48,878 nucleotides of DNA, from positions 1 through 48,878 of the IMG/VR virus record IMGVR_UViG_3300037183_000039. One strand, 5' to 3'. The stretch comes from a virus (lineage: Duplodnaviria; Caudoviricetes). The notes under the pieces are model-generated. The model was not told the origin of the DNA and made no database searches. It worked only from the letters and a program-made list of their open reading frames with translations. Of this stretch, positions 5,263-48,878 are shown piece by piece. Each line of letters begins with the position of its first letter. Within the stretch, counting starts at the first letter, position 1. The position numbers and the translations under genes were made by a program.

Positions 5263-5832
5263 GTGATCAAGGAAGGGGTTCTCATCCAGGAAAATTTCCT
5301 GTCGGCCACCCAGTGCAAAGTCCTGCGTGGCCTCTACAACGACTATCATACGAAAGTAAAAGGTCTGGACTACAACCGCCGACCGACCGTACACTATCTT
5401 GACATTCAATCACCTATTGATCAGATGAGAAAGTACAACTTCAGGTCGGCGGCGGAGAGAGCCGTCCAGAAGGCGGCCGACGTCTCCGGTATGAAACTCT
5501 TCCCAGAGGCAGTGTTTCTGGCTAAGATCGGAGTCGGCGAGAGGCACCCTCTCCACTGTGATAACGTAGAAGTGGGCCAGGACGGGAAGTGGAGGCCGAA
5601 TCACACTCCTCAGAGGGACTACTCGGCCCTGATCTACCTCAATTCAGACTTCTCGGGCGGTGAACTCCACCTACCGGGACGCTTCGAAATCAAGCCGGAG
5701 GAGGGTCTCCTGGTAGGGTTCCCTAGCACCCAGGACTTCCCGCATGAGGTCTACCCGGTCACCGATGGAGTGAGGTACTCACTGCCTGTCTGGATGACGA
5801 AGGACACCAGATTCAGGCTTCATCTCCTTTAG
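5263..5832 (+). CDS. 2OG-Fe(II) oxygenase, prolyl-4-hydroxylase-like
   Basis: ENFLS, HCD iron motif, SALIYLNSDFSGGEL, distal PHEV, RYSL; GTG start behind GGAGG; lone plus-strand gene in this part. Confidence 0.85.
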   Translation: MIKEGVLIQENFLSATQCKVLRGLYNDYHTKVKGLDYNRRPTVHYLDIQSPIDQMRKYNFRSAAERAVQKAADVSGMKLFPEAVFLAKIGVGERHPLHCDNVEVGQDGKWRPNHTPQRDYSALIYLNSDFSGGELHLPGRFEIKPEEGLLVGFPSTQDFPHEVYPVTDGVRYSLPVWMTKDTRFRLHLL

Positions 5833-5901: not shown

Positions 5902-6378
5902 CTACAGTTTGAGGACCGGTTGGATCATGTCCTGGTGGTGGCCGTCGACCCCGGCCGCATCATGGGCGGAGTCCAAAGCGTGAATCATAATCTTGGCCTG
6001 TTCAACCCCAAGAGTGTTTGCGGCATTTTGCAAACCTACCCCGGTAGCTGCCATGGCCTTATTCTTCTTGTCGATTTCCAGGTTTAAAGCATCGACTTCA
6101 TCGTCGACCTTCTTCTTCCGGCTGGCCTGGAAGAGAGCCAAGAGGGTGAGGAGGCCTTCTCCAACGTAATGGCCAATCGGCCCGGTGGCGTCCCCGGCTG
6201 TTTTGATGATCATGCCGGGAGCTGTCTCTGCCGGTGGTGTCACTTCGGTGTACCACCGCCCGTCCGGGGCCTGGACCTTGTGGACGCCAGAGGCGCTGTC
6301 GACCGTCTCCGAACAGGAGGACGCGCCCATGGTCATGACGACCAACAGTGCGAGTCCGAACATCATAAAGAGCTTCAT
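5902..6378 (-). CDS. putative lipoprotein / lysis accessory protein
   Basis: signal peptide MKLFMMFGLALLVVMTMGASS-C, second hydrophobic stretch followed by RKKK and coiled coil. Confidence 0.55.
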   Translation of the reverse strand: MKLFMMFGLALLVVMTMGASSCSETVDSASGVHKVQAPDGRWYTEVTPPAETAPGMIIKTAGDATGPIGHYVGEGLLTLLALFQASRKKKVDDEVDALNLEIDKKNKAMAATGVGLQNAANTLGVEQAKIMIHALDSAHDAAGVDGHHQDMIQPVLKL

Positions 6379-6394
6379 AGAGCCCTCCTTTCTT

Positions 6395-6823
6395 CTAGTG
6401 GGTGGGGGTTTTATCGGAATAAGTCAGGATGGAATGCAAGATCTTACCGGCGGCGGCGATACCGGCAGAGACGAGGGCCAGCAACCCAAGGAATTTCTTG
6501 GGATTGTGGGCGGCCGAATTCCACTCGTGCTTCTTGATCTCTTCCTCACACTTGTGCGGGGTGCTGGCTTCGCCTATCTTCAGGTGGTTCACCGCGGAAC
6601 CTACACTCTTGAGACCTTCGACGAGCGATTTGTTCAGCATGTTCTGGTTTTCCGTGTACACGACCAGACGGGTGCTGACTTCGGTCAACTTCACGGTAGC
6701 CGCGTCCAGCTTTTCATTCTGATCTTTGACTTGTTCGTGAAGTGCCTCGGCCACCTGGATCTTGCCGGACATCTGGTCCACGCGGTCCCGGAGACGGCTG
6801 AACTCCCGCTCTTCTGTCGTCAT
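6395..6823 (-). CDS. coiled-coil protein with C-terminal TM helix (holin/XhlA-like candidate)
   Basis: N-terminal heptads, KKFLGLLALVSAGIAAAGKIL TM segment, end of the late operon. Confidence 0.5.
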   Translation of the reverse strand: MTTEEREFSRLRDRVDQMSGKIQVAEALHEQVKDQNEKLDAATVKLTEVSTRLVVYTENQNMLNKSLVEGLKSVGSAVNHLKIGEASTPHKCEEEIKKHEWNSAAHNPKKFLGLLALVSAGIAAAGKILHSILTYSDKTPTH

Positions 6824-7602
6824 GTGGGCGCCCTCTTCGTATAGATCTTGGTCATAGCTTGAACGCGTCCGGTCCTGGGGGAGATGAAAGCGTGAGCCTT
6901 CATTTCACACCCGTAGGACACTACGATCCGGTCTACGTGAGCGGCGCACAGACGCTCGTTGAGCTGGGCCGAAGACAGGTTGTTCTCCGAGCCGTCGAAG
7001 GCCCGTTCCCTGATCCAGCGCGTAGCAACGACCTTCTGGCCGGACTGTACCGGGAGACCGGTATGCATCGTCCGATGGTCGATGCCACCGTCCTGCATGG
7101 TGTTGTCCCACATGAGGGCGGCGCCAACTTCCGGCTTCACTTTGATCTTGAGCTTGGTGAACTCCGTCTCACCACCGGAAGTCGGCGCTTTCAGGTACAC
7201 CATGACGGTACGGATACGCTGGCCGCCCTGGGCCAGATGTTTCCCGGCCGATGGGAGGCCCGGGTCGAACCAGTCGTGGTGGGGCTTGTACTTCTGCCAA
7301 CGCTTGTAGCCGATGATCTGGATGGGCTCCCCCTGCTCCACTCTGGTCCTGGAGACCTGGGAGATGCGACGTTCGAGGGCGTCTACGAGCGAGTCCTCCG
7401 CTCCACGGAGCATGGTGAGGAACCCGGTCCGGTAGTCGGACTCTATGGACGAGCCGGTAGCATTGTCTACCACCGTAGAATTGACCTGCCTGCCTTCCGA
7501 AATATGGAGCAAATGGTCGCACTCTTCGGGAGACATGAAACTACGGAGCAGGACCACCCGGGGGGAGTCGCTGAGCTGGACGACTAGTTCCTGTGGTTTC
7601 AC
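6820..7602 (-). CDS. prolyl 4-hydroxylase (2OG-Fe(II) oxygenase)
   Basis: PRVVLLRSFMSPEECDHL, S.YRT, GEPIQI..Y...QKYKPHHDWF, GGQRIRTVMVYL, GGETEF, H.GLPV..G.K.VATRW; GTG start overlaps the upstream stop. Confidence 0.9.
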   Translation of the reverse strand: MKPQELVVQLSDSPRVVLLRSFMSPEECDHLLHISEGRQVNSTVVDNATGSSIESDYRTGFLTMLRGAEDSLVDALERRISQVSRTRVEQGEPIQIIGYKRWQKYKPHHDWFDPGLPSAGKHLAQGGQRIRTVMVYLKAPTSGGETEFTKLKIKVKPEVGAALMWDNTMQDGGIDHRTMHTGLPVQSGQKVVATRWIRERAFDGSENNLSSAQLNERLCAAHVDRIVVSYGCEMKAHAFISPRTGRVQAMTKIYTKRAPT

Positions 7603-7826
7603 GTGGCCTGGACTCCCCAGGAGGTCTTGATCAGACCCTCCCCGTCGATTCCGGCTACCGTGGCGATGGCGCAGTTGTGCTTGTTCAGGACGGCTAGGAT
7701 CTCGTCGTGACACTCCCGGGCCCGGCGGTCCAAGTCGAACTTCGCCGCTGCCTCGAGTTCCGCCGGGGTACGGGTGACCTGGGCTGGAGTAGACTTCGCT
7801 TTGGACTCTTTCATTTTCGGGGCCAT
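7599..7826 (-). CDS. hypothetical protein
   Basis: strong SD GGAGGAGG, coupled to P4H. Confidence 0.65.
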   Translation of the reverse strand: MAPKMKESKAKSTPAQVTRTPAELEAAAKFDLDRRARECHDEILAVLNKHNCAIATVAGIDGEGLIKTSWGVQAT

Positions 7827-7837
7827 AATTCCTCCTC

Positions 7838-8353
7838 CTAAGTCGCGTTCTCGGGGAGAGGCGGAACACTGTCCTTGCCGAGGAGTTTCATCTTGGTCTC
7901 GGGCTTCTCTTCCTCGAACGGGACGCCCTCCAGTTCCTTGGACTCGTCCAGATCCGCATTCTCTGGTAGGATGGCTGCCTTACGGACCAGACGACCGAAT
8001 TCCTCACCGATGGAATCGGCCGCGCTGAAGAGGTCCTGTCGCTCACGGAACCCGGTGGGCTCCCCGGTCATGTGATCCTTGACCGCGCCCTGGACGATTG
8101 CCAATTTCACGCCGGATAGGGCTTCGAACGAGAGCTTGAGATCCACCTTCTCAGAAGGCTTCTCGATGTTGTCGATGCCGATGCTGCCACCGACATTGAT
8201 TCGGACTGCGGCGTGGGGCTCCAACTCCCGGTCGGCCGCCAGGAGCCAGTTCTCCTGGGTGCGGTTGCCGCTCTTGGCGACCTGGACTTTCAGCCAGATG
8301 ACTCGGACGTGCAACCGGGCTACGGACACCGGGAACTTCCTGGGGTTTGCCAT
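7838..8353 (-). CDS. hypothetical protein
   Basis: strong SD GGAGGAGG, in late-operon orientation. Confidence 0.7.
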   Translation of the reverse strand: MANPRKFPVSVARLHVRVIWLKVQVAKSGNRTQENWLLAADRELEPHAAVRINVGGSIGIDNIEKPSEKVDLKLSFEALSGVKLAIVQGAVKDHMTGEPTGFRERQDLFSAADSIGEEFGRLVRKAAILPENADLDESKELEGVPFEEEKPETKMKLLGKDSVPPLPENAT

Positions 8354-8405
8354 AAATTCCTCCTCCTATAAAGGTCGGGTTTCACGGTCCCGACCGCCGA
8401 CCGGA

Positions 8406-8813
8406 CTACTTGGACGAAACGTCCGGCGCGACTTCGGCCTTCACCGGGGCAACGAGGTCCAGGGCCGCCAGATCCTTGTCGTCGACCTGTTGGGCCTTGG
8501 GCTTCCCGTCCTCGACGACCTGGATCGACTTCTTGGGCATGGCCACGGGCTTCGGGTCTTCCGGGGCTGCGTCCCAAGAAGCGAAAAAAGCATCCATCGC
8601 CGGACGGACGACATCGACGAACGGGACGGCGCAAGACTTCGCGTGGACGTGACCGGGAGTCGGGTCTTTGCAAAAGACCGTCTCGCCGTGCCCGGCCAGG
8701 GGCTCGAACTTCTCGCCGGACGGCTTGTACTTGATGTCGTCCTTGAAGATCTCGCCGAGGATGACGACTTCGCCGTCGTCCATGACCCGCATCGCTTCGT
8801 AGTAGATTTTCAC
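8406..8813 (-). CDS. hypothetical protein (possible fibre chaperone)
   Basis: AAGGAGG + GTG directly downstream of the tail fibre. Confidence 0.65.
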   Translation of the reverse strand: MKIYYEAMRVMDDGEVVILGEIFKDDIKYKPSGEKFEPLAGHGETVFCKDPTPGHVHAKSCAVPFVDVVRPAMDAFFASWDAAPEDPKPVAMPKKSIQVVEDGKPKAQQVDDKDLAALDLVAPVKAEVAPDVSSK

Positions 8814-8823
8814 TGGATCCTCC

Positions 8824-10887
8824 TTAAGCGTAGATGGCGTCGACCGCAGTCACCTGGGCCCGCTTCCATCCACCGTTGTAAACATAAACCTTGTTGTTGG
8901 TCGAGTCGTAGGTCATGGCCACCTGCCCCGTGGGGACGTTTGCCGGAACGCCGGTTGGGGTGCCCGCACAAGACGGGATCGTCAGCCAGCCGGTGGTCGC
9001 GTTGGTCGCCTGGGCGGCGGTGGCGAACGACACGCAGCCCGTGGGCAGTCCCAGGTAGGCCCCGTAGTTGACGATGGACGTGCCCACGTAGATGGTGCGG
9101 ACCCGGTTGGCCCCGGCGGTGCCGAAGTCGAGCGCGTTGTCGGAGTTCGACACCCAGTGGCCGGACGCCTGGATGATCCAGCGAGTCGAGCCGGACTGGA
9201 CGAACAGGACGCTCGACGTGTTGGCCGACCCGGTGCCGAAGCTGACCGAGCGGCCGGTGCCGGTGCCCCCAATCGTCGCCTGGATGTTGTAGCCGCCCGC
9301 CGCCGTGGTGAACTCCATCCGGCCGTAGTTGACCGGCGTCGTGTCCGAGTCCGTCGTCTCGTACAAGTAGTTGGACTGGGCGTTGGTCGTCCTGGACTGC
9401 GCCAGAATGTCGGACGCCGCATACCGCAGGAACACGGTGTTGTTCCAGTTGATCACTCCGGCCGTGTCGAACCGGACCGACGTTCCCGGGTAGATCGTGC
9501 GGGGGCGGGTCGCGCCCGAAGCGCCGATGTCCTGCACGTTGTCGGTCGACGTAATCCAGTGTGCTGCCGCCGCTGTCACCTGCCAGTTGTTAACGCTGCT
9601 GATGCCGATACCGACGTTGCGTTGAACTCCGGTGCCCCCCTTGGACCCGAGCAGGTAGCAGACGTTTCCGGTCCATACCAGCCCGGTCCGCTCGTAGTTT
9701 ACGGGCGTCGAGTCCGAATCCGTCGTGTTATAGAGGTAGTAGGTCTGGGCGTTCGTGGTGTTGGACTGACTGAGCACGTTGGCCGCACTGCGCCGAAGGA
9801 ACAGGTCGGTGCTCCAAGCCAGAACTCCGGCCGTGTCGAACGTGACCGACGTGCCGGGGTAGATCGTGCGAGGACGCGTGGCACCGCTGGCTCCGATGTC
9901 GAACGTGTTGTCGACCTGCGCACCGAAATGTCCGGTGGTCGACTGCAGGAACCATCGTGCGGTGTTGTCGCTGCCGAGGTACAGGTGGCCGCCGCCTGTA
10001 TTGGAGCGCAGATAGGCGTTCGACCCGTCGTGCAGCATCTCGATGTACAGTGGCCCCGTGGTCGTGCCGTAGACTCGGAAGAGTTGGGCGTTCGCGCCGT
10101 TCTTGAGAGCGAGTCTCCCGCCCGCACTGTCTCGCGCGAGGATGACGTCTGCCGAAGTGACGCCGGACGACCCCCAGGCAAGACTGCCACCGGCGGGTAG
10201 AGAGAAAAGAAGCGGTTGAATCCGAAGGGCGTCCGTGCCAGCAACGGAGAAGCGGATGTCTGAAGACCCGGACCTCCAGAGCCCAGTGTTGGTCTCGTTC
10301 TCGAAGCTGTACGACGGCGTTCCGACCAGTCCGTTCGGCCCGAGCGTCTGTGTCCCGAAGTAGAGGCTGCGGATCTGCCCGGACGTCGCCTTGCCGATGT
10401 CCTTGGTGTTGCTGCCGCTGGGGAGCAAGTGCCCGGTCGACCCGGCGCCGTCGATGGTCCAGCGGTCCGAGCCGCCCGTGTTGAAGACGATGTCGGTGGA
10501 GCCCGTCGTGGAGATGGTGATGTTGTAATTGTTGCCCGAGCCCAGGGCTTCCTGGCGGAGTTGAGTGCCCAGCCCGGCACTGGCGTCGATCACGAAGCGG
10601 GAATAGTTCGAGCCGTCAACGTACTGGTTGTAGACGCGGTACGCCTGGGCTTGGCCGACCACGCGCTGGGCGAGGACACCCGCGGCGTCACGGGTAAGCT
10701 GGATGTCGACCGGATTCGTGCCGTCCCCCCAGGACATCGACCCGGCGGCGGTCATGTTGTAGCGCTTAACCACGTCCGTAACGACCCGGGCCGTAAGGAC
10801 GACGGTTCCCGAAGTCGCACCGACGAGGTCGATGAGTCCGAAGGACTCAGAGTCGCCGACTACCGGTGGATTATCGAATTCCGCCAT
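8824..10887 (-). CDS. tail fibre / receptor-binding protein with internal repeats
   Basis: Gly/Thr/Ser/Asn-rich beta sequence; repeated DIGASGATRPRTIYPGTS unit; C-terminal YDSTNNKVYVYNGGW fibre-tip-like motif. Confidence 0.8.
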   Translation of the reverse strand: MAEFDNPPVVGDSESFGLIDLVGATSGTVVLTARVVTDVVKRYNMTAAGSMSWGDGTNPVDIQLTRDAAGVLAQRVVGQAQAYRVYNQYVDGSNYSRFVIDASAGLGTQLRQEALGSGNNYNITISTTGSTDIVFNTGGSDRWTIDGAGSTGHLLPSGSNTKDIGKATSGQIRSLYFGTQTLGPNGLVGTPSYSFENETNTGLWRSGSSDIRFSVAGTDALRIQPLLFSLPAGGSLAWGSSGVTSADVILARDSAGGRLALKNGANAQLFRVYGTTTGPLYIEMLHDGSNAYLRSNTGGGHLYLGSDNTARWFLQSTTGHFGAQVDNTFDIGASGATRPRTIYPGTSVTFDTAGVLAWSTDLFLRRSAANVLSQSNTTNAQTYYLYNTTDSDSTPVNYERTGLVWTGNVCYLLGSKGGTGVQRNVGIGISSVNNWQVTAAAAHWITSTDNVQDIGASGATRPRTIYPGTSVRFDTAGVINWNNTVFLRYAASDILAQSRTTNAQSNYLYETTDSDTTPVNYGRMEFTTAAGGYNIQATIGGTGTGRSVSFGTGSANTSSVLFVQSGSTRWIIQASGHWVSNSDNALDFGTAGANRVRTIYVGTSIVNYGAYLGLPTGCVSFATAAQATNATTGWLTIPSCAGTPTGVPANVPTGQVAMTYDSTNNKVYVYNGGWKRAQVTAVDAIYA

Positions 10888-10895
10888 TTTTACCT

Positions 10896-11303
10896 CTAGA
10901 CGACGAGATCCTGGACCGCGGTTTCACCGCTGAGCTGGACTTCGATTGGCCCGATGGTTCCCTGCTTGTACCGGACCCGGAACCACTGTCCCTGCTTGAC
11001 CTTGAGGGGGGCCGTGTACGACCGCATCACGTTGCCGTAATCGGCGATGCGGACGGTCGCCCTGATGGCCCAGGTGCCTGGGGTGCCGTTGTTGTCCGGG
11101 GCGACCTCAAACTGGACCTTGGCGTTCCTGGCCGAGGAGTCCATCGAGGCCACGATGTCCTTGATGGAAAGCTCATTACCCACGTCGTTGGGGATCTTGC
11201 TCACCGGGACCAAAGTCTGAGCTATGATGACGGTGAGGGCGAGGTTACCTACTGCGTCTTCGCCGTACGCGTTGAAATTGCCTTGAGGATTCACTAGACC
11301 CAT
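10896..11303 (-). CDS. putative small virion protein
   Basis: beta-rich 135 aa, SD AGGAG, upstream of the fibre. Confidence 0.6.
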   Translation of the reverse strand: MGLVNPQGNFNAYGEDAVGNLALTVIIAQTLVPVSKIPNDVGNELSIKDIVASMDSSARNAKVQFEVAPDNNGTPGTWAIRATVRIADYGNVMRSYTAPLKVKQGQWFRVRYKQGTIGPIEVQLSGETAVQDLVV

Positions 11304-11326
11304 AAATGCTCCTACGGTTCACTCCC

Positions 11327-11355
11327 ATTAGACCACGAGAAACGTTTTCCGTCAA
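11327..11355 (-). promoter_or_regulatory. sigma-70-type promoter for the fibre/P4H/lysis genes
   Basis: TTGACG-N17-TCTAAT with TGn extension, intergenic. Confidence 0.7.
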
Positions 11356-11369
11356 TGAGAGTTACAGAA

Positions 11370-14309
11370 CTAGACGTACGCCTCGACGTACCGTTGGGTG
11401 CCGTCACTACACATCACCAAAATCCACTTGTCGAACCCGGTGATAGGGCCGGGTCCGCCGAGCTTCCCGGCCGCGACCGGCGCCCCGGCTCCGTCGACGT
11501 AAAGGTTGGCTGTTACCATCACGGTGCCCGAGATGTCAGGGCAGAAGTAGGCACGGCCTGTAGTGTTCGCATGCCAGATTTCACCGTACTTAGCCGGGTC
11601 CTTGCTCATGGACAGCCAACGGATGCGCTGGTTGCCCTTGGTAAACCGGACGGCCTCATACCGGAACTGACTGGACGTCATCGATTCGAATACCAGATCC
11701 CCAGTCGCTTCGTCGGTTCCCCAGAAGTACCCCTCTTTGAGCTGTCCGTTTACGAGTTCCGGCGTTCCGGCCCCGAAGTAAGCGTTGGGAGCTACAATGA
11801 GTGAAGTCTTGGAACGGCTGACCCCGGAACCGGGTTTCATGTTTCTACGGGCGGCGTCCCTAAGATCAGTCTCAGGCGGATGGATGACGAGGCCGCCGTC
11901 AGCAGTGCCGCCCGACCACTTGGACGGTGATTTGCCGGAAAGCCGGGTCCCCTTCGGGGCTTGGGTGTAATTAAAAGGATCACCACCGGCCGGGACCGTA
12001 GACGGTGAGGAACTGGGCGGCGGAGGAGGCGGGGGTGGCGGCGACGGCGGCCCCGGCGGGGGAGGCGGGGGCGACGGCGGGGGAGCAAACGGCGACGGCG
12101 GCGTCGTGGGAATGACGGCCCCGGCAATCGTACCACCCTGGGCTCCAAAGGCACTGGCCACCAGAGTCGTCGGGTTCGAGTGAATAGCTTTGCTGACCGA
12201 AGCCGTCGTCGGCTGGCTAAATACTCCGGTGTCCGTCGCCCCGGGCGTATAGTTCTGAGCCTGGGCGGCGAAGGCCGAAGCCTGGGTGGGACTGACCGAA
12301 GTCGTGGTCCTCATTCCTTCACCGACGTTAGAGTCGGTAGCGACGATCTGCGGGTCCTGATAAGAAAGCTGACCGACAGGCGCCCCACTCTTGTGGTAAT
12401 TGGGATCGTTCCGGTAAGGGTCGAGCGGGTCCGTGGTAGGCACACACGGTTGGGGGCTGCAAGGCGACATGGGCGGCGACCCGGGCGACATCGGAGGCGA
12501 AGGATACATAGGAGGAGAAGGCGGAGACCCCGGTGGGTAACACGGAGTCGGCGGCGCCATGTTGGGATCACAAGGCGGCGGCATCGGGTCCGACGGCGGG
12601 GGCGGCGGGTAGTAAGGCGGCGGTGGGTAAGGCGGCGGCGGGGAGTAGTGGTCCGTCGTCGACCACCACATCCACATTTGAGCCCCGTCGTTCCACCCCA
12701 GGTGGACCGGGACTACCACGCTCTTGTCCTGGCCGGACCTCCACTCGGTTTCGAAGGCAAGTGGACCATCATAGCGGTCGTCACGTTTGAAGAGAGCCCC
12801 CGTCCACAAGTGAAGAGGGTTGATAGGGAAGTTGTCTCCGGTCTTGCCCAGCTTGTGCTTGTCGGTCGCCGACCCCACCCAAAGCGGTCCGCCGTGCCAG
12901 CGGGAGCCGTGTCCCACGATCCGGCTCTTGCTCTTGTCGGCCGTAGGGTCACCGGGTTTCGGGGCGGCCACGGCTCCAGTGACCGGGTCCGCGCCCGAAG
13001 ACATGGGCGGCGGGGCCGCCTGTTCGCCACGGTCTATGAAGAATCCGCCCTCGGTGTCCTGACACCCGGACGGTCCCAGTTGGAAAGCCACCGAATTCAT
13101 CCCGCCGAGCGGTTTCTTGAGGACCCAGAACACTGATTGGAGTGGGGCCTTACGCTGGCGGTCGGCTTCAAACTTCTTAGTTACGTCATAGACGAGCGTT
13201 CCCATGCCAGGGTCGCCGCCGTGATTGACCGCGTACAGGTTCGGGTCGGTCGGGAAGAAGAGTTCAACTTGTTTGGACTCGTCCGTCGCCGATACCACGA
13301 GCCCGGGCGTACCTTTGGGAAATTTGGGCCAGAGGTTGTCTTTACCAACCTTCGGGAAATTGGCGTCGATGCCTTTATATCGTTTATCGGGCTTCCAAGA
13401 ATCGTCCTTAACTGGGCGAAGCTGGCTGTCGCCCGGCATCATGACGCCGCAACCGTCTTGCTTGTCGCCGCCAGTGCCGGGTGATTTGGCTCCGGGAACC
13501 CCACGGAGGCCTTCCGCGCCGGAGTCACCGTTAAGCCCAACCTGAGCACCGTTCCCGTCGCCACCCCACTGGCCCGGGCCGACCGGACGACCGCCCGGAT
13601 TCTGCTGACCCTGTGGGGAGTTCTTATTGCCAAAAGGATTCCTATAAGGGTCCGCCGGTTGAATGAAATGAGCAAAGCCGGACCCGGCGCCGACACCCTG
13701 CAGCCCAGTGAGTGCTTCCGTCGACCGACTTCCGCCGTAGGAAAAACCGCCAAATCCGCCTACGTTGCCGACGCCCTGGAGACCGGAGAGTGCCTCGAGA
13801 CCGCCCTTGCCACCAACGGTAAACGGGTAGAAACCCTGCCCACCGTTGATTCCTGGGCGACCCTTGTTAATACCAAGAGTCAGGACGTCGCCCTTAGCGT
13901 TGGGGGAGGAAGGACCACCCGGCGAGAACCCGTTAGGGGGTCCAAGACTCTGCAGGAGACCCGGGTCGTTGGGGTCGCCAGCCTGAGCGATGACTACTCC
14001 GCCCGTATCCTCGGAGGCTACGTCTTCCGGCTGGTCCCCGGCCTCACCGTAGAGGGCAGGCCAAACCCAAGACCACCCGGGCATGGGACGGGAGTCGTTG
14101 GGCCAGCACAAGGCTCCGACGACGTCCCCGACTTTTGTCTGATCATGGTGCCACTCGCCAATGTTGTCGTCGCCAACAAAACGGTCAAGGACTGCGTAGC
14201 CCCACAGGGCCGAACGCATCTCCAGGTCCCATCCGTTGGCGTCGTACTTGTCGTGCCGGAGTGGCAGGAACCCGGCCCCCTGAGGACCTCTCGAATCTGC
14301 GTTCTTCAA
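11370..14309 (-). CDS. large tail-module protein with Gly-rich and extensin-like polyproline segments
   Basis: 979 aa coupled to the upstream tail gene; YSPPPPYPPPPYYPPPPPS and PPPSPPPPPPGPPSPPPPPPPPS tracts. Confidence 0.8.
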   Translation of the reverse strand: MKNADSRGPQGAGFLPLRHDKYDANGWDLEMRSALWGYAVLDRFVGDDNIGEWHHDQTKVGDVVGALCWPNDSRPMPGWSWVWPALYGEAGDQPEDVASEDTGGVVIAQAGDPNDPGLLQSLGPPNGFSPGGPSSPNAKGDVLTLGINKGRPGINGGQGFYPFTVGGKGGLEALSGLQGVGNVGGFGGFSYGGSRSTEALTGLQGVGAGSGFAHFIQPADPYRNPFGNKNSPQGQQNPGGRPVGPGQWGGDGNGAQVGLNGDSGAEGLRGVPGAKSPGTGGDKQDGCGVMMPGDSQLRPVKDDSWKPDKRYKGIDANFPKVGKDNLWPKFPKGTPGLVVSATDESKQVELFFPTDPNLYAVNHGGDPGMGTLVYDVTKKFEADRQRKAPLQSVFWVLKKPLGGMNSVAFQLGPSGCQDTEGGFFIDRGEQAAPPPMSSGADPVTGAVAAPKPGDPTADKSKSRIVGHGSRWHGGPLWVGSATDKHKLGKTGDNFPINPLHLWTGALFKRDDRYDGPLAFETEWRSGQDKSVVVPVHLGWNDGAQMWMWWSTTDHYSPPPPYPPPPYYPPPPPSDPMPPPCDPNMAPPTPCYPPGSPPSPPMYPSPPMSPGSPPMSPCSPQPCVPTTDPLDPYRNDPNYHKSGAPVGQLSYQDPQIVATDSNVGEGMRTTTSVSPTQASAFAAQAQNYTPGATDTGVFSQPTTASVSKAIHSNPTTLVASAFGAQGGTIAGAVIPTTPPSPFAPPPSPPPPPPGPPSPPPPPPPPPSSSPSTVPAGGDPFNYTQAPKGTRLSGKSPSKWSGGTADGGLVIHPPETDLRDAARRNMKPGSGVSRSKTSLIVAPNAYFGAGTPELVNGQLKEGYFWGTDEATGDLVFESMTSSQFRYEAVRFTKGNQRIRWLSMSKDPAKYGEIWHANTTGRAYFCPDISGTVMVTANLYVDGAGAPVAAGKLGGPGPITGFDKWILVMCSDGTQRYVEAYV

Positions 14310-37019: not shown

Positions 37020-37940
37020 ATGATCAAGCACGGAGAATGGACGACCCCGGCCGAAGCGATGCATGCCTGCGGCCTCAACTGGGGCGTCCGGCTCAGCGAA
37101 CTGACCCTGAAGGGAACGTCGACGGTGGCACCCGCTCACCGGGCCGTGGTCCGCGACGACAACGGCGAAGTCCTGGGGGTGGTCGGCCGTCAATGGTCGC
37201 CCGTCCAGCCCGCCCGGGCCTTTGACTTCCTCAACCGTCTCGCCCCCGACCTGGGCATGCGGTTTGTGAACGCGGGAGAGTTCCAGGGAGGGCGCAAGGT
37301 CTTCGTGCAGGCGAAGCTGCCGGAGGTCATGACCGTCCTGCCGGGCGACGACACGCTCGAGCACATCACCTTCACGACTGGGCTCGATGGCGGGCTGGCG
37401 ACCACGATCAACGAGACCGCGGTCCGGATCATCTGCCAGAACACGTTCAGGATGGCCCGGCTGGACGACAAGGGCGAGTTCCGGTTTGTCATCCGCCACA
37501 CGGGGAATCAGGAGCAGAAGCTCGAGGCGGTCCGTCGGCAGGTGCAGGCCGTCATCAATCGCTTCGCCGCGATCCGCGACGACATGAAGCGGTTCGTGCA
37601 GTTCAGCCCGAGCAAGGCGCAGGTCTCGAGCCTGCTGAGCCAGATCCTCCCCTACGAGGTCACGGAGCGCACCACGGCCGACTCGATGGTCGGGAACGCC
37701 GGGTCCCAGAACCGGGTGAGGGAGCTGATGGAGACCGGGAAGGGCACGGAGATCCCGGGAGTCAAGGGGTCCGCGTGGGGGCTCTTTAACGCGGTCACGG
37801 AGTTCGTCGACCACGAGCGCGTCACGACCGGGAAGACGGACGCCATCCGGGCCGAGAACCGGATGAGGTCCGCGACCCTGGGTTCCGGTGCGACCCTCAA
37901 GGACAAGGCTTATGCTGGCATCCTGGAGATGGTCAGCTAA
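37020..37940 (+). CDS. DUF932-family protein
   Basis: GLNW.V, AVVR.D...VLGVVG..W.PVQ...AFDF, AG...GGRKVF, DG.......VRIICQNT, IRHT, GSAWGLFNAVTEF.DH. Confidence 0.9.
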   Translation: MIKHGEWTTPAEAMHACGLNWGVRLSELTLKGTSTVAPAHRAVVRDDNGEVLGVVGRQWSPVQPARAFDFLNRLAPDLGMRFVNAGEFQGGRKVFVQAKLPEVMTVLPGDDTLEHITFTTGLDGGLATTINETAVRIICQNTFRMARLDDKGEFRFVIRHTGNQEQKLEAVRRQVQAVINRFAAIRDDMKRFVQFSPSKAQVSSLLSQILPYEVTERTTADSMVGNAGSQNRVRELMETGKGTEIPGVKGSAWGLFNAVTEFVDHERVTTGKTDAIRAENRMRSATLGSGATLKDKAYAGILEMVS

Positions 37941-38031
37941 GAGCGAACGGACGGCTGGGGGAGCCCCCGGGCCTGGACAGCCTGGGGCGCTCACCCAGTC
38001 ACCCGTTGTGGGTTGACGAAGGAGGAGACGA

Positions 38032-38226
38032 GTGATCAACAGGAAAGAGGCGGCACGGCTGAAGGCCAGCTTTATCAATCTGGTGTCGGCCCATGCGCGG
38101 GACTTCGTGGTTTTCGCCCAAGGTGAAGGGTCGAACCTGTACGAGGCAAAGGTGGTGATGGCGTCGGCTCTGCGGGAAATCGCCGCTACCCTGGACGCCG
38201 AAGCCGAAGCGGAAGTGTCCCGGTGA
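38032..38226 (+). CDS. hypothetical protein
   Basis: GACGAAGGAGG + GTG. Confidence 0.6.
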   Translation: MINRKEAARLKASFINLVSAHARDFVVFAQGEGSNLYEAKVVMASALREIAATLDAEAEAEVSR

Positions 38227-38438
38227 ACGAAGGACGCCGCATCAAGGGAGTGATCCTGACCCCTGGCTTTAAGCAGGTGGTCGAGGCTTCCACAATCGGC
38301 CTGCCGCCGGGCTGCTGGCCCGCCATGCTGATCGTGGGGGAGACGCCGCTTGCCCTGGTGGCTGCCGTGGACGACGGGTCGCCGCACCGTTACGTCAACC
38401 TGTGGGATGCTTGCGAACTCATCGTCGTCAACGACTGA
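38223..38438 (+). CDS. hypothetical protein
   Basis: GTGA-coupled; EAS.IGLPPG.WP motif. Confidence 0.6.
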   Translation: MNEGRRIKGVILTPGFKQVVEASTIGLPPGCWPAMLIVGETPLALVAAVDDGSPHRYVNLWDACELIVVND

Positions 38439-38442
38439 GGAC

Positions 38443-38471
38443 TTGACAGAGAACCGTTTGTGTGCTTTAAT
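38443..38471 (+). promoter_or_regulatory. near-consensus sigma-70 promoter
   Basis: TTGACA-N17-TTTAAT with TGn. Confidence 0.8.
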
Positions 38472-38537
38472 GGTCTGGACCGAATACGGCACCCGTAGTG
38501 ACCGCGTTCAGTCCAGCAGGAACGAAGGAGGATCACA

Positions 38538-39182
38538 ATGAAGACCCACATCAGCAAGCACGTGCTGTCGGCCCTGAAGGAAGTCAAGGCCAACGGTGGG
38601 ACAAACCTGGATGAGGACAGCAAGATTTCCCTGCGTACGCTGGACTTCGCGTTGGACACGGACGACAACGCGGCGCCCATGAAACTCACGGAGTCCGGTG
38701 AACTCGCGATCACGAATGCCGTGACGCATAAGGAGGATAGTGACATGGCGACCAAGAAGGGCAAGAAGTCCAAGCCCGTGTCGAAGGCCAGCATCGGCCA
38801 CCGCGACGGAGTCATGACGAAGAAGTACAAGCACTTCGTCGCCGGGTCGCTCCGGGCGAAGAGCGGCAGCTCCAAGCTCCAGTGCGAGATCAAATGCCTC
38901 GCCGGAGCGCCGGGCCTCGTCAAGAAGAGCCCGGGCTGCACGGGTGAGCGGACGGTCTTCTCGTCCGACGTCTTCCAGGTCAAGGTCTGCGAGGCCTGCC
39001 GCGATTTCCGGGAGCCCAAGGTCAAGGCGGCGCCCAAAAAGAAGTCCGAGAGGGCCCGGGTGACCATCAACAAGGCGACGGCGGCGAAGCGGAAGGCGAA
39101 GTCCCCCGTCCGCACCCTGTCGGCCGACTCCCAGGAGTCCGAAGCCCCCGTCGAGAAGACGTCGGAGGCGGCGGCCGAATAA
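38538..39182 (+). CDS. Lys-rich, Cys-containing putative DNA-binding protein (second in-frame start at 38745)
   Basis: two AAGGAGG SDs; basic tracts; C..C...C...CEAC. Confidence 0.7.
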   Translation: MKTHISKHVLSALKEVKANGGTNLDEDSKISLRTLDFALDTDDNAAPMKLTESGELAITNAVTHKEDSDMATKKGKKSKPVSKASIGHRDGVMTKKYKHFVAGSLRAKSGSSKLQCEIKCLAGAPGLVKKSPGCTGERTVFSSDVFQVKVCEACRDFREPKVKAAPKKKSERARVTINKATAAKRKAKSPVRTLSADSQESEAPVEKTSEAAAE

Positions 39183-39307
39183 CAGCCCTTAAACCCCCTC
39201 TCCCGGTGGCCCCGGGCCGGACTCACCGTCTGGTACCGGGGCCCCTTTCGGGAGCTGGTGAGCCAGCTTCCAAGAGGTTAGGAATGAGGGTTTAAGGAGG
39301 CGAGAGA

Positions 39308-39844
39308 GTGGACTTTCACAAGGCTTTGGCGCAGCTCGACCAGTTCGTACGTGGGGTCTGCAGAGCATCAAGCAAGTGTCCCGGCACTCAGGACGACCTG
39401 TACCAGGAGGCGATGATCTGCCTCATCGACCTCACCCAGCGCTACGCGGATAAGCCCGTGGACGAGTTCATGCTCCTGGCCCGGACTTCCATCAGGAACC
39501 GCCTGACCTCGATGGCCCGCAAGCGTCAGGTCTACTCCAGGACCCTGGACAGGATCGAGCCCCAGGAGTCGGTGGAGCCCCAGCAGTTCCAGGAGGCCCT
39601 GGCCCGGGAGGTCTTCTCCTACGTGGAGGCCCGGCTCACCGATCGGGAGCGGACGGTCCTGGCCCTGACCAAGAAGGGAATCCCACCCCACCACATCGCC
39701 AAGATCACGGGTCGTGGCAAGGTCGGCGTCTTCAAGTCCTTGCGCATCATCAGGGAGGAGATTGCCACCTACCACGGCCGGAGTGAGGACCTGGACACCT
39801 GGATCAGCCGCCAACTGGCCACGATCCGGGCCCTGTTCTACTGA
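39308..39844 (+). CDS. RNA polymerase sigma factor (ECF/SigH-like)
   Basis: region 2 QDDLYQEAMI.L...Y...F...AR..IRN; region 4 LTDRERTVL...G.....IA...G. Confidence 0.85.
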   Translation: MDFHKALAQLDQFVRGVCRASSKCPGTQDDLYQEAMICLIDLTQRYADKPVDEFMLLARTSIRNRLTSMARKRQVYSRTLDRIEPQESVEPQQFQEALAREVFSYVEARLTDRERTVLALTKKGIPPHHIAKITGRGKVGVFKSLRIIREEIATYHGRSEDLDTWISRQLATIRALFY

Positions 39845-40101
39845 TGGGCATGAGCAAGGGCGGTCCCGGGTGCGAAAAGTGCGCTTGCCAGGACCCGGAC
39901 GTCATGGTAACACAGAGACGGTGCAACCATTCGGCCTTTAACGGCTACCATTGGACGGCGTCCGACTATTCAACCGTCCGGTGTTTATGGTGTGAAACCA
40001 CCTGGAGAACGAAAGCCAAGTATGTAACTGTAAAACCAGACGCACCGCAAACCTGGAGAAGCCAAACCATAGAGGAAACACGTGCCCTACTCAAACAATG
40101 A
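39844..40101 (+). CDS. small Cys-rich hypothetical protein
   Basis: NHSAFNG...T.SDYS.VRC..C...WRTKAKYV. Confidence 0.7.
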   Translation: MGMSKGGPGCEKCACQDPDVMVTQRRCNHSAFNGYHWTASDYSTVRCLWCETTWRTKAKYVTVKPDAPQTWRSQTIEETRALLKQ

Positions 40102-40384
40102 AGAACGTCGGGAGAAGAACCGCGTCTTCAACATAGCCTACCGTCGGCGCTTGCAGGCGAGGCGTCTAGCACTCATCGACCGCCTGGGCGGCAAATGTTT
40201 TGACTGTCACGCGACCGTGGGACTCGAGGTCGACCACGTGGTAGTGGACAAGCCGAGCCGCATGAGGGAGAAGTCCCACGTCGCCCGAATCCTGGAGTAC
40301 GAGGCCCAAGAGAAGAAGGGCAACGCCATGGTTCGGTGCAAGGTCTGTAACGGTAGCAAGCAGGACAGGTTCGGCCACTACTAG
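40082..40384 (+). CDS. HNH endonuclease-like protein
   Basis: LGGKCFDC....LEVDH...C..CN..K. Confidence 0.75.
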   Translation: MPYSNNEERREKNRVFNIAYRRRLQARRLALIDRLGGKCFDCHATVGLEVDHVVVDKPSRMREKSHVARILEYEAQEKKGNAMVRCKVCNGSKQDRFGHY

Positions 40385-45556: not shown

Positions 45557-46131
45557 TTCTGAATCCCGTTTACGATTTCCAAGTGGACGTCGGCGACCGT
45601 GGGCAGCCACCGGAGCAGGGGCTCGAGCGTGGAGGCTTCGTCCTGGAAGCGCTTCTCGGCCACCAGAGCGTCCCACTTATCGGACCGGGCCTTGACCCTG
45701 GCCCGCCGGACTTCCAGGTCGGCCTTCACCACCACGATGGCGACCCGGTAGCCATACTGTTGGGCCTTGCCGGTCAGCCACATGAACTGGGCCCGGGACC
45801 TGGGGAATCCATCAATGACGACGGACTTGAGCCTGGACCCGGCCTTGATGGCCTGCAGGATATGGGCCCGGACGAGGTCCTCCGTCGACTCCGGCGCCAG
45901 CTTCCCAAGGTCCGGGAGATCGTGGCCGGACATCGTCGCTCGGACGAACTTACCCGGAAACACTACCGAGTAAGGAGCGATACGGGCCATGTTGTCGATC
46001 AGAGTTGTCTTGCCCGAGCCCGTACCGCCCGTAACTCCTATGAGGAACCCCTCCCTGGGCAGGACCCCGGCGATGGCACGAGCCCAGTAGTCGGATTCGA
46101 CCGTGACCGGATCGATGTCTGTCGGTTTCAT
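45553..46131 (-). CDS. adenylate-kinase-like (d)NMP kinase
   Basis: P-loop GGTGSGKTT, DGFPRS..Q, R.R...R.D lid; ATGA-coupled to purZ. Confidence 0.85.
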   Translation of the reverse strand: MKPTDIDPVTVESDYWARAIAGVLPREGFLIGVTGGTGSGKTTLIDNMARIAPYSVVFPGKFVRATMSGHDLPDLGKLAPESTEDLVRAHILQAIKAGSRLKSVVIDGFPRSRAQFMWLTGKAQQYGYRVAIVVVKADLEVRRARVKARSDKWDALVAEKRFQDEASTLEPLLRWLPTVADVHLEIVNGIQK

Positions 46132-47282
46132 GCGAGTTCAATCATATCAGAGACCTTCGGCCCCGTCCCGACGTGGGACAGGAGCGGCTTGGGGATGAAC
46201 GGGATCGTACCGTCGTCCATCAGTCCCTCCACGTAACGGACGAACTGCCGGGAAGGTTCCGTCAGCTCCGACAGCGACCGCTTGCCGCCGTCCTCCGCCC
46301 GGACGTGGTTGATGAAGTTGAGGAAGACATGAGTCGGGGCGCATACCCGGAGGGCCTTCTTGAACTGGGTCTCGGAGAAGGTGAACACGCGCCGGATCTT
46401 GTTGGTCACCGTGGTCCGCTCCACCAGCGAGAGCTTGGAGTCCGACATCCGCTCCAGGTCCTCCCATTTGATCTCCGACTGGTCCGCGTAGAAGGGACCG
46501 GAGTCGCCGACCTTGACCATGACGTCGTCCTTGCCGTACATGCCCTTGGGGTCCTGGACAATTCCTGGTCCCTTCTCCATCTGGTGGCCGACCCGGATCG
46601 GGAAGGCCCTGATGCACCCATAGACGTCCCCGATGAGCTGGGGCGGCACCCCGGCATCATTGAGGATCTGGGACGGAGTCACGTCACGGGAAGTGCAGTA
46701 GGGCCACAGGTGGCCGTGGTTGATGGACAGGTCGAATCCCTGGGCCCCCTCGGCGAGGCACAGCGCCCCACCCGCCAGGAAGGTCCGTAGGTAGGCGGTC
46801 GTGTCGCCGATCCACTCCTTCAGCTCCCGGCAGTCCTTGGCCAGAACTGTCAACGTGGCACCCGGGGTGCGCATCATCTTTCCAACCATAGAAGCTGCGG
46901 TCCCCTGCTGGGTGGAGGAGATGTGCTTCAACGACTCCCTCTCCTTGGTCTTGTGGATTTCCAGGACCACTGCCGCGTGAGGGTGAATCATGAGCCGCTT
47001 CTGGGCCTTGTGGGTCTCGACCTCCTCCAGGAGTCGGTAGATATCGATGACCGAGCCCGGGTTGAGAAGGAGGCGGGTGTCCGGGTCCAGGGCCGCGACC
47101 GGAAGCATCTTGAACACGTGCTTCTTGCCGTCGTCCAGGACCGCTGTGTGTCCGGCGTTGGGGCCGAAGTTAGTTGTGGCCGCCGCGATCTCGTGCTTGT
47201 CCGACAGCCAGTGGACCATCTTCCCCTTGGCCTCGGAACCCCACTGGAGTCCCATCACTACGTTCAGCGCGTACCGTCTCAT
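46128..47282 (-). CDS. purZ: PurZ-type adenylosuccinate synthetase paralogue (2-amino-dAMP-succinate synthetase candidate)
   Basis: QWGSEAKGK (Ser for PurA Asp13), GPNAGHT, EGAQG, PYCTSR, RAFPIRV, ERTTVT..IRRVF, FLNFIN, GTGP; short archaeal-type length. Confidence 0.88.
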   Translation of the reverse strand: MRRYALNVVMGLQWGSEAKGKMVHWLSDKHEIAAATTNFGPNAGHTAVLDDGKKHVFKMLPVAALDPDTRLLLNPGSVIDIYRLLEEVETHKAQKRLMIHPHAAVVLEIHKTKERESLKHISSTQQGTAASMVGKMMRTPGATLTVLAKDCRELKEWIGDTTAYLRTFLAGGALCLAEGAQGFDLSINHGHLWPYCTSRDVTPSQILNDAGVPPQLIGDVYGCIRAFPIRVGHQMEKGPGIVQDPKGMYGKDDVMVKVGDSGPFYADQSEIKWEDLERMSDSKLSLVERTTVTNKIRRVFTFSETQFKKALRVCAPTHVFLNFINHVRAEDGGKRSLSELTEPSRQFVRYVEGLMDDGTIPFIPKPLLSHVGTGPKVSDMIELA

Positions 47283-48751: not shown

Positions 48752-48768
48752 TTTTCCTCCGATTTGTG

Positions 48769-48878
48769 CAGCCGGAACGCCCGGCAGGCACAACCCCGTT
48801 CACGGCACCCGGTCGAGAGTTCGAGAGCGGGCATGAGGGTAACGACAGTGACTTTCCTGCCGTCGCGCTGCTTGAACC
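48769..48878. repeat. 110-bp terminal direct repeat, copy 2
   Basis: identical to 24-133. Confidence 0.95.

Follow-up and report, generated by a model that had tools for sequence, protein, structure and literature searches.

A phage prolyl 4-hydroxylase fused to a tail-associated domain, and its candidate polyproline substrate in a tail protein

Introduction

Plant extensins and algal hydroxyproline-rich glycoproteins carry Ser-Pro4 motifs and proline runs that contain tyrosine. The closest described enzyme to the one reported here is Chlamydomonas reinhardtii prolyl 4-hydroxylase 1 (P4H-1; 2jig, 3gze), the best match by both sequence and fold, which was solved with a (Ser-Pro)5 substrate resembling the phage tracts described below. 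The roles of its active-site residues are given in PMC5684110. The same fold and catalytic set occur in bacterial peptidyl P4Hs, including those of Bacillus anthracis (5v7y) and Pseudomonas putida (4iw3), with EF-Tu as the substrate according to the PDB titles, and in proteobacterial homologs.

A viral P4H has also been described. The enzyme of chlorovirus PBCV-1 (vCPH, 5c5t; E = 4.7e-19 to the phage enzyme) is active on Pro-containing peptides, and according to a review it has long been known with no proven viral substrate, hydroxyproline having been sought in PBCV-1 virions and not detected (PMC7019647). An earlier note on the DNA studied here cited PBCV-1 as encoding a P4H for Pro-rich viral proteins; the activity on peptides stands, but as a precedent for virion modification it is weaker than claimed. 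PBCV-1 is, moreover, a eukaryotic giant virus, and its P4H has no tail-linked domain. Among phages, P4H-like genes are carried as "P4HA" auxiliary metabolic genes (PHROG 61, K00472), which PMC9301287 describes as abundant in viromes and of "cryptic" viral use, with a mention of collagen tail fibres. Iyer et al. (2010; PMC2938197) predict that tail-collar or collagen-like proteins are modified by hydroxylases encoded alongside them; those operons are bacterial and the enzymes belong to the beta-hydroxylase and phytanoyl-CoA-hydroxylase families, whereas here a P4H accompanies a phage's own polyproline tail protein. Literature searches that covered mainly openly available papers gave no account of a tailed-phage virion protein containing hydroxyproline.

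Here we analyze a 48,878-nucleotide stretch of DNA (the window) from an uncultured phage from peat. What is new, judged from sequence, is a phage P4H fused to a domain that otherwise occurs as a stand-alone gene after tail-fibre genes. Beyond the phage "P4HA" genes, this phage offers a specific candidate substrate and a putative targeting domain.

Results

The phage P4H looks like an intact peptidyl hydroxylase

The P4H gene (6820 to 7602, minus strand) encodes a PF13640 protein that matches Chlamydomonas P4H (2jig) at E = 3.9e-37, with a catalytic domain at residues 1 to 205 followed by a C-terminal helix and beta-hairpin at 210 to 255. Its start is most likely the GTG at 7602, giving 260 aa, since a distinct gene of 75 aa that has its own GGAGG site occupies 7826 to 7599 and meets it in a GTGA overlap. 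The 349-aa reading from 7869 was therefore rejected; the sequence collection's own call (P0007) is 238 aa. The earlier note was right that a complete P4H lies downstream of the Pro-rich gene; the two genes are not adjacent, being separated by five genes and 3.8 kb.

The iron triad H108, D110 and H180 aligned with Chlamydomonas H143, D145 and H227, and the peptide-positioning residues E92, Y105, R129 and W196 aligned with E127, Y140, R161 and W243. K190, which we take to be the 2-oxoglutarate-binding lysine, aligned with the algal Lys and was invariant in 24 sequences. The predicted structure (pLDDT 91.9) had as its best fold match 3gze, the algal P4H with (Ser-Pro)5 (Foldseek E = 3.6e-22, TM 0.86 by target), while HIF-type and other 2OG oxygenases were weaker (E = 1e-7 to 1e-8). 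Alignment and model together suggest an intact-looking peptidyl P4H in which all Fe-, 2OG- and peptide-binding residues are kept. Unlike P4H-1, it has no N-terminal signal or anchor, it carries a C-terminal phage domain, and its candidate substrate is a putative virion protein. The label "plant/algal-type" used in the earlier note names the fold; equally similar P4Hs are present in 30 proteobacterial genomes. Matches in cultured phages were all below 60% identity, with 80% query coverage in 1 of 174.

Two polyproline tracts lie within a tail fibre/spike-family protein

The candidate substrate is a 979-aa protein (11370 to 14309, minus strand) that had no Pfam or PHROG match and is assigned through its relatives, of which 1231 were found at E <= 0.001 (a deeper search with the tail family returned 8 proteins). 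Its gene sits where the tail module ends, the protein has a conserved N-terminal part and a swappable tip, and at 26 of 28 loci a homolog comes after the 729-aa gene. Exchangeable tips in the family include PF07484, PF25692 and PF01391: the C-terminus of relative L120 matched tail-collar PF07484 (E = 3.8e-20), and of 27 relatives scanned two had a match, Phage_depo_C in P0135 and collagen in P0005. The protein thus belongs to a tail fibre/spike family, as the earlier note's assignment to the tail module implied. Its predicted model was poor (pLDDT 57, with the tracts mostly at low confidence), and fold searches with it gave no clear named match (best PDB rows E = 0.2, Z <= 5.9). There was no usable Atlas match for the conserved core, nothing among viral contigs in a single-protein locus search, nothing among GTDB genomes for the tail-family alignment and no match among cultured phages for the 729-aa neighbour.

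A conserved core (approximately residues 285 to 553) is followed by the first Pro linker, a small conserved block, the second Pro linker, a conserved beta-rich block (approximately 777 to 920) and a short variable tip. Tract 1 (12447 to 12647, minus strand; residues 555 to 621; YSPPPPYPPPPYYPPPPPSDPMPPPC) is a candidate P4H substrate with Tyr-Pro, Ser-Pro and Met/Cys-Pro, and counted over 72 residues it holds 37 Pro, 9 Ser, 6 Tyr and 4 Cys, with six YP/PY dipeptides. Tract 2 (12015 to 12110, minus strand; residues 734 to 765), also a candidate substrate, has Ser-Pro and runs of up to 9 Pro, with 26 Pro within a 49-residue linker. With three SPPPP and 18 SP the protein has the Ser-Pro4 motif and Tyr-containing Pro runs of extensins. 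Unlike extensins, it is not a secreted protein made mostly of repeats: the tracts are two short linkers that account for roughly 100 of its 979 residues and separate folded blocks which the phage tail family conserves.

The tracts themselves, which the earlier note had pointed out, proved real. The richest 60-residue window is 57% Pro, the highest of 152 homologs (median best fraction 0.28, at least 0.5 in 1 of 152), and 1000 shuffles of the protein gave a mean best fraction of 0.25 and a maximum of 0.33. The codons are a mixture of CCG, CCT, CCC and CCA, so the tracts are not a simple DNA repeat. Contigs from a second study (run X2) span both tracts with zero differences (11415 to 12340 and 12320 to 12865), and another spans the P4H (6853 to 7911) with one; a different run, X1, may be where the window itself comes from. 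On the mixed codons and agreeing contigs we rejected an assembly artefact.

The P4H carries a domain otherwise found after tail fibres

The phage P4H ends in a domain of about 55 aa homologous to a stand-alone phage gene found after tail fibres. In the window this is the 75-aa gene (7599 to 7826, minus strand), whose product was found by an HMM of the P4H C-terminal domain at E = 8e-6 (19,428 sequences) and by hhalign (58%, E = 1e-4). Stand-alone homologs lie directly after tail fibres here and in G003 (E = 1e-9), G020 (E = 0.004) and G004 (E = 0.09), and the family is small and virus-associated, the three nearest Atlas structural clusters being 83 to 100% viral.

The domain is present in 32 of 59 close P4H matches, 24 of which went into building the profile and 8 of which lay outside it. 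It was absent from all 30 P4H loci of bacterial genomes and from all 32 of metagenomes. In a tree of the catalytic domain alone, fused P4Hs formed one clade (90/92; 45 rows) with the 30 bacterial P4Hs outside it; the P4H trees contained no algal sequence. The fusion has been retained over 32 sequences at 31 to 56% identity with two near-invariant Cys, which, together with the full set of peptide-binding residues, suggests that both parts are under selection and that the substrate is a peptide. Because DNA-pattern scans for a fused-clade motif gave only G004 among viral contigs and 0 in GTDB, gene order is visible for only two enzyme-positive genomes.

Tyr-Pro linkers, and not proline content, tend to track the enzyme

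A fused P4H and this tail family share a contig in six cases. Two were seen directly and four are inferred from contigs of a P4H and a tail homolog that are identical in exact size and source (9221, 15571, 20045 and 55235); about 0.015 such pairings would be expected by chance in 30 x 30 comparisons, versus the four found. The fused domain and this co-location support a tie between the enzyme clade and the tail module. Tyr-Pro/Pro-Tyr dipeptides in linker 1 had a median of 5 in the six enzyme-positive cases versus 0 in 151 other homologs (p = 1.5e-4), a measure picked post hoc once the sequences had been inspected and a comparison group mostly not established as enzyme-negative. Relatives that are enzyme-negative have at most one such dipeptide each, one enzyme-positive case (P0113) has zero Tyr-Pro, and the six positives come from only three tail subclades. 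The second Pro linker was found in 4/6 enzyme-positive cases versus 4/40 (p = 0.012).

Overall Pro fraction did not separate enzyme-positive from other homologs (p = 0.087), and Pro-rich picks were paired with a P4H in 3/10 cases versus 0/10 for low-Pro controls (Fisher p = 0.105). Pro-rich linkers occur family-wide, with at least 30% Pro in 69/152 homologs and a run of at least 4 Pro in 50/152. A P4H is absent from G008 and G021, which have Pro windows of 42%, and from the 22 kb of prophage locus L120, where the tail homolog has a long Pro run, while G004 has a P4H with a tail window of 28% Pro. On G008, G021, G004 and the overall Pro fraction we rejected a rule by which more Pro means a P4H, and a strict pairing of enzyme and polyproline, whose co-occurrence the earlier note had proposed to examine, is not supported; that note had also held that relatives keeping the P4H without the tracts would speak against its proposal, and G004 shows this in part. 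Co-divergence was likewise rejected: across 15 pairs, enzyme identity did not correlate with tail identity (rho 0.15, p = 0.6). We conclude that Tyr-Pro linkers tend to track the P4H and that Pro content as such does not. Any modification would be optional within the tail family, as most relatives make the same tail without a P4H (6/7 complete relatives lack it, two of them despite having polyproline).

A proposed role in tail modification

We propose that the P4H acts on the tail protein of its own phage, hydroxylating the Tyr-Pro and Ser-Pro linkers of the 979-aa chain, with the fused domain predicted to target the tail fibre, a reading that we consider plausible and about evenly poised between right and wrong. 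The two proteins would be co-expressed in the late gene run, the C-terminal domain would bring the enzyme to the fibre, and the linkers would be hydroxylated in late infection. Hydroxyproline could then stiffen or hydrate the polyproline-II linkers or shield them from proteases, and it could act as a sugar acceptor in relatives of the G004 type. The earlier note had likewise suggested that the phage hydroxylates its own virion protein; the intact-looking P4H, the tail family and the fused domain with its co-location speak for this, but there is no strict pairing of P4H and polyproline.

It is unlikely, in our view, that the P4H instead modifies a host protein, in the way that EF-Tu is modified by the enzymes of Bacillus and Pseudomonas, with the tracts being ordinary unmodified linkers. 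Close structural matches of the phage enzyme do include 5v7y and 4iw3, similar P4Hs are common in Proteobacteria, and Pro linkers are also found in relatives without a P4H. However, a host substrate leaves unexplained the fusion to a tail-associated domain, the late-gene position and the Tyr-Pro enrichment.

The enzyme might also tailor the virion through another phage protein, such as a second fibre or a head protein, or prime glycosylation elsewhere on the particle, which we rate as quite unlikely. In G004 the P4H is far from the tail and closes a glycosyl/methyltransferase block (GT2, TylF, FkbM) between the portal and minor head genes, the tail tract is mild, and the stand-alone domain gene follows the second fibre both there and in the window. 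Yet no other window ORF of at least 350 aa exceeds 20% Pro in 60 residues, no window ORF has at least 8 Gly-X-Y triplets, and Pfam found no glycosyltransferase or peroxidase among 70 window ORFs. The last result also sets this phage apart from extensin systems and leaves the earlier note's idea of glycosylated or Tyr-cross-linked tracts without backing. Least probable is that P4H and tracts are linked by shared ancestry only, the fusion having arisen by chance beside a tail gene and the enzyme acting on a small molecule or being dispensable; the six positives do occupy only three tail subclades, the P4H is patchy (1/7 complete relatives) and its position differs between the window and G004, but the near-invariant Cys pair and full peptide-binding residues kept throughout the 32 divergent fusions favour selection over chance.

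Returning to hydroxylation of the tail linkers, a wider version would have a dedicated pathway in a large uncultured phage family, in which a tail-targeted P4H acts on extensin-like fibre linkers, sugars are added to hydroxyproline in some members (the G004-type block) and this phage has an additional 3-hydroxylase step; we hold this only tentatively and think it doubtful as a whole. If true, phages would have a counterpart to the protein chemistry of plant cell walls, and some of the P4H genes that phages carry as "metabolic" genes would be virion-tailoring enzymes. Hydroxylation of the linkers, if real, would itself mean proline hydroxylation in a tailed-phage virion and would shift phage P4H genes from "metabolic" to "structural tailoring". 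As the locus provides a soluble-looking P4H, two candidate substrates short enough to synthesise and a putative targeting domain that can be deleted, the question can be tested without phage culture. The production of hydroxylated recombinant proteins could also benefit from a monomeric P4H that carries a small targeting domain.

Neighbouring genes and a second oxygenase

Next to the 979-aa gene lies a 135-aa tail-module protein (10896 to 11303, minus strand; tblastn to G003, E = 2e-11, and G004, E = 3e-7), followed by a probable second fibre-like protein of 687 aa (8824 to 10887, minus strand). The latter had no family match and was assigned by eye, its C-terminus resembling those of tail homologs P0004 and P0220. 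A 135-aa ORF (8406 to 8813, minus strand) and a 171-aa ORF (7838 to 8353, minus strand) had no family match and no homolog among 8 related genomes. Promoter and terminator scans were close to shuffle level (4 vs 1.8 and 10 vs 8.5).

On the plus strand, at 5263 to 5832, the window encodes a second 2OG-Fe(II) oxygenase of 189 aa, which the earlier note had not mentioned. It had no ortholog among the 8 relatives, and a locus search returned nothing among viral contigs. The protein resembles prolyl 3-hydroxylase 1 (P3H1, leprecan) and has H98-x-D100, H161 and R171; its sole PDB match is human P3H1 (8k0e, E = 9e-11, residues 94 to 185), and it lacks the large N-terminal region of the 736-aa P3H1, to which it has no N-terminal match.

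A predicted peptide-type prolyl 4-hydroxylase

The P4H gene (6820..7602, minus strand, 260 aa) that the earlier note placed downstream of the Pro-rich gene is real; its start is most likely a GTG at 7602 that is coupled to the stop codon of a 75-aa gene (7599..7826, minus strand), and it sits five genes after the Pro-rich gene. The best PDB sequence match is Chlamydomonas P4H-1 (E 3.9e-37), followed by the B. anthracis, human, and PBCV-1 P4Hs. In the Chlamydomonas alignment, K190 falls on a conserved algal Lys, which we take to be the 2-oxoglutarate-binding Lys. The same alignment pairs E92, Y105, H108, D110, R129, H180, and W196 with algal E127, Y140, H143, D145, R161, H227, and W243, which one report describes as iron ligands and substrate-positioning residues (PMC5684110). 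The structure model (pLDDT 91.9) has as its best fold match the algal P4H with bound (Ser-Pro)5. Because sequence, residue alignment, and fold match all agree, the enzyme is predicted to be a peptide-type P4H by every available test.

A second, prolyl 3-hydroxylase-like oxygenase (5263-5832, plus strand), with a GGAGG site ahead of its GTG start, lies between the late and replication modules on the opposite strand. Its only PDB match is human prolyl 3-hydroxylase 1, its distant cyanophage matches carry the label leprecan or 2OG-Fe(II) oxygenase, and no ortholog was found in the eight genomes of relatives searched.

Proline linkers in a putative tail fibre or spike

Both proline tracts previously noticed in the 979-aa protein (11370..14309, minus strand), its linkers 1 and 2, proved to be present and correctly placed. 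Pro makes up 57% of the best 60-residue window, where 1000 shuffles reach at most 33%, and this value tops every one of 152 homologs (median 28%); by these comparisons the tracts are not chance. An assembly artefact is ruled out, since the codons are mixed and contigs from a second study are identical over both tracts.

We read this protein as a putative tail fibre or spike, although its structure model was poor and fold searches gave no confirmation of that assignment. Its family (1231 clusters) has conserved blocks with variable linkers between them and an exchangeable tip, and a member comes after the gene for a 729-aa tail-module protein in 26 of 28 loci. Tips include a tail collar in a GTDB prophage locus (L120) and, as the two matches in a scan of 27 long homologs, a depolymerase C-terminal domain (P0135) and collagen (P0005). 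The description of an extensin-like tail protein holds for the two linkers but not for the protein as a whole. Collagen-like or Gly-periodic runs occur in tail proteins of relatives (L003 9968-12964, L005 16179-16799, genome G002; L048 9042-12308, genome G021), and no P4H was found in their complete records.

A fused domain ties the P4H lineage to the tail module

Behind the catalytic domain, P4H residues 210-255 are modelled as a helix and a beta-hairpin, with two near-invariant Cys. A profile built from 24 sequences finds this domain in 32 of 59 close P4H hits (8 of the 32 being relatives outside its training set), in one of four viral loci (that of the related phage genome G004), and in none of 30 bacterial-genome or 32 metagenome P4H loci. 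Stand-alone homologs detected by the same profile are the 75-aa gene of the window (E 8e-6) and genes in G003 (1e-9), G020 (0.004), and G004 (0.09), each directly after a tail fibre gene; in the Atlas, the structural clusters closest to the 75-aa protein are mostly viral and without names. In trees of only the catalytic domain, the fused P4Hs form one clade, both in a quick one (117 rows, SH-aLRT 92) and in a careful one of 45 rows (90/92); the latter leaves out 8 near-duplicates among the fused rows and most of the non-fused ones, and counts the C-terminally cut P0022 as fused. Because the stand-alone homologs adjoin tail fibres and the fused P4Hs are a single clade, this enzyme lineage is tied to the tail module, and we infer that the domain targets the enzyme to the fibre. 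This tail-associated domain is the new element here and the best handle for testing. A different P4H, with an N-terminal extension and without the C-terminal domain, is encoded within the replication module of an unrelated phage (L055 3337-4179).

Co-occurrence of the enzyme and the linkers

Among 26 related records searched directly (two further loci lay outside the search), one has a P4H, G004, which is also the one among the seven complete records; a filter-free search of eight genomes agrees. A strict pairing of P4H with polyproline tracts is not supported, as G008 and G021 have 42% Pro windows without a P4H and G004 keeps the enzyme with a best window of 28% Pro. In G004 the P4H lies away from the tail, closing a block that includes GT2, TylF, and FkbM genes. 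This block (L038 6824-15410), with about ten genes of glycosyltransferase-like or methyltransferase type, is inserted between the portal and minor head genes, and its transferases are followed by the fused P4H together with a double-Cpn10 co-chaperonin.

Four fused P4H/tail pairs (P0023/P0092, P0016/P0113, P0019/P0096, and P0021/P0218) were inferred from exactly equal longest-contig sizes and the same source, with ~0.015 expected by chance. A fused P4H matched 3 of 10 Pro-rich tail picks versus 0 of 10 low-Pro controls (p 0.105). Across 157 tails with a placeable core end, the Pro fraction of linker 1 did not differ between enzyme-positive and other tails (p 0.087). Tyr-Pro/Pro-Tyr counts in linker 1 were 6, 4, 17, 5, 0, and 5 in the six enzyme-positive cases against a median of 0 (p 1.5e-4; at least three in 9 of 151 other tails), and a second Pro linker was present in 4 of 6 versus 4 of 40, both measures having been chosen after seeing the data and the six cases falling in three subclades. 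Together this is suggestive of a link between the P4H and such tails, not proof of one. Pairwise identities of enzyme and tail showed no correlation.

Proposed role of the enzyme

The most likely reading, at about even odds, is that the P4H hydroxylates the phage's own tail linkers late in infection. With Fe(II), 2OG, and O2, it would convert linker Pro to 4-hydroxyproline, the fused domain would bring it to the fibre, and the linkers may become stiffer or better protected. Glycosylation or Tyr cross-linking, also suggested earlier, found no backing, with no glycosyltransferase or peroxidase among the 70 window ORFs scanned; sugars on hydroxylated linkers are plausible only in G004-type relatives. 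A host protein such as EF-Tu is an unlikely substrate for an enzyme whose fused domain has its relatives beside tail fibre genes. Less probable again is another virion protein, which the gene's position away from the tail in G004 would allow, and least probable is shared ancestry as the only connection between P4H and tracts.

The PBCV-1 precedent is weaker than the earlier note had it: its P4H is active on Pro peptides, but its role is reported as not known and hydroxyproline as not detected in virions (PMC7019647). Phage P4HA genes are common, and their use has been called cryptic (PMC9301287). Iyer et al. predicted that bacterial hydroxylases modify tail-collar and collagen-like proteins encoded alongside them (PMC2938197), and another report mentions EGLN3-like proteins in phages, with no substrate named for them (PMC12774648). 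The earlier note knew of no such system in a tailed phage, and our searches, over literature available partly in excerpt, likewise found no report of it. Overall, the feature is real and its first interpretation is partly supported.

Other features of the genome

The 48,878-base virus record, rated complete, is that of a tailed phage, with a terminase, a Mu-like portal, and head genes followed by a tail module that has no annotation; all of these are encoded on the minus strand. The region was found in two runs, both peat metagenomes from separate studies, one of which may be the window's own source. In GTDB, a relative of the 729-aa protein turned up in a single genome, a Planctomycetota MAG (L120, 28% identity), which is a weak hint at that host group. 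A PurZ-like adenylosuccinate synthetase (46128-47282, minus strand; PHROG 1211, E 3e-67) has top PDB rows including 6fm1 and PurZ 7odx, a Ser in its GSxxKG motif, and a dUTPase-like gene and a UDG-fused PolA nearby. It was not found in eight relatives, and it points to a 2-aminoadenine (Z) genome that would be peculiar to this phage.

After the P4H come 142-aa and 158-aa ORFs (5902-6823, minus strand), by eye possibly lysis genes; the former has a hydrophobic C-terminal stretch and a weak match in G004, and the latter a lipoprotein-like N-terminus. A direct repeat of ~110 bases near both ends (approximately 24-135 and 48767-48878, start offset ~23 bases) would fit a genome that is circular or terminally redundant. 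A short plus-strand island (37020-40384) in this minus-strand genome encodes DUF932 and sigma-70 region 2 proteins.
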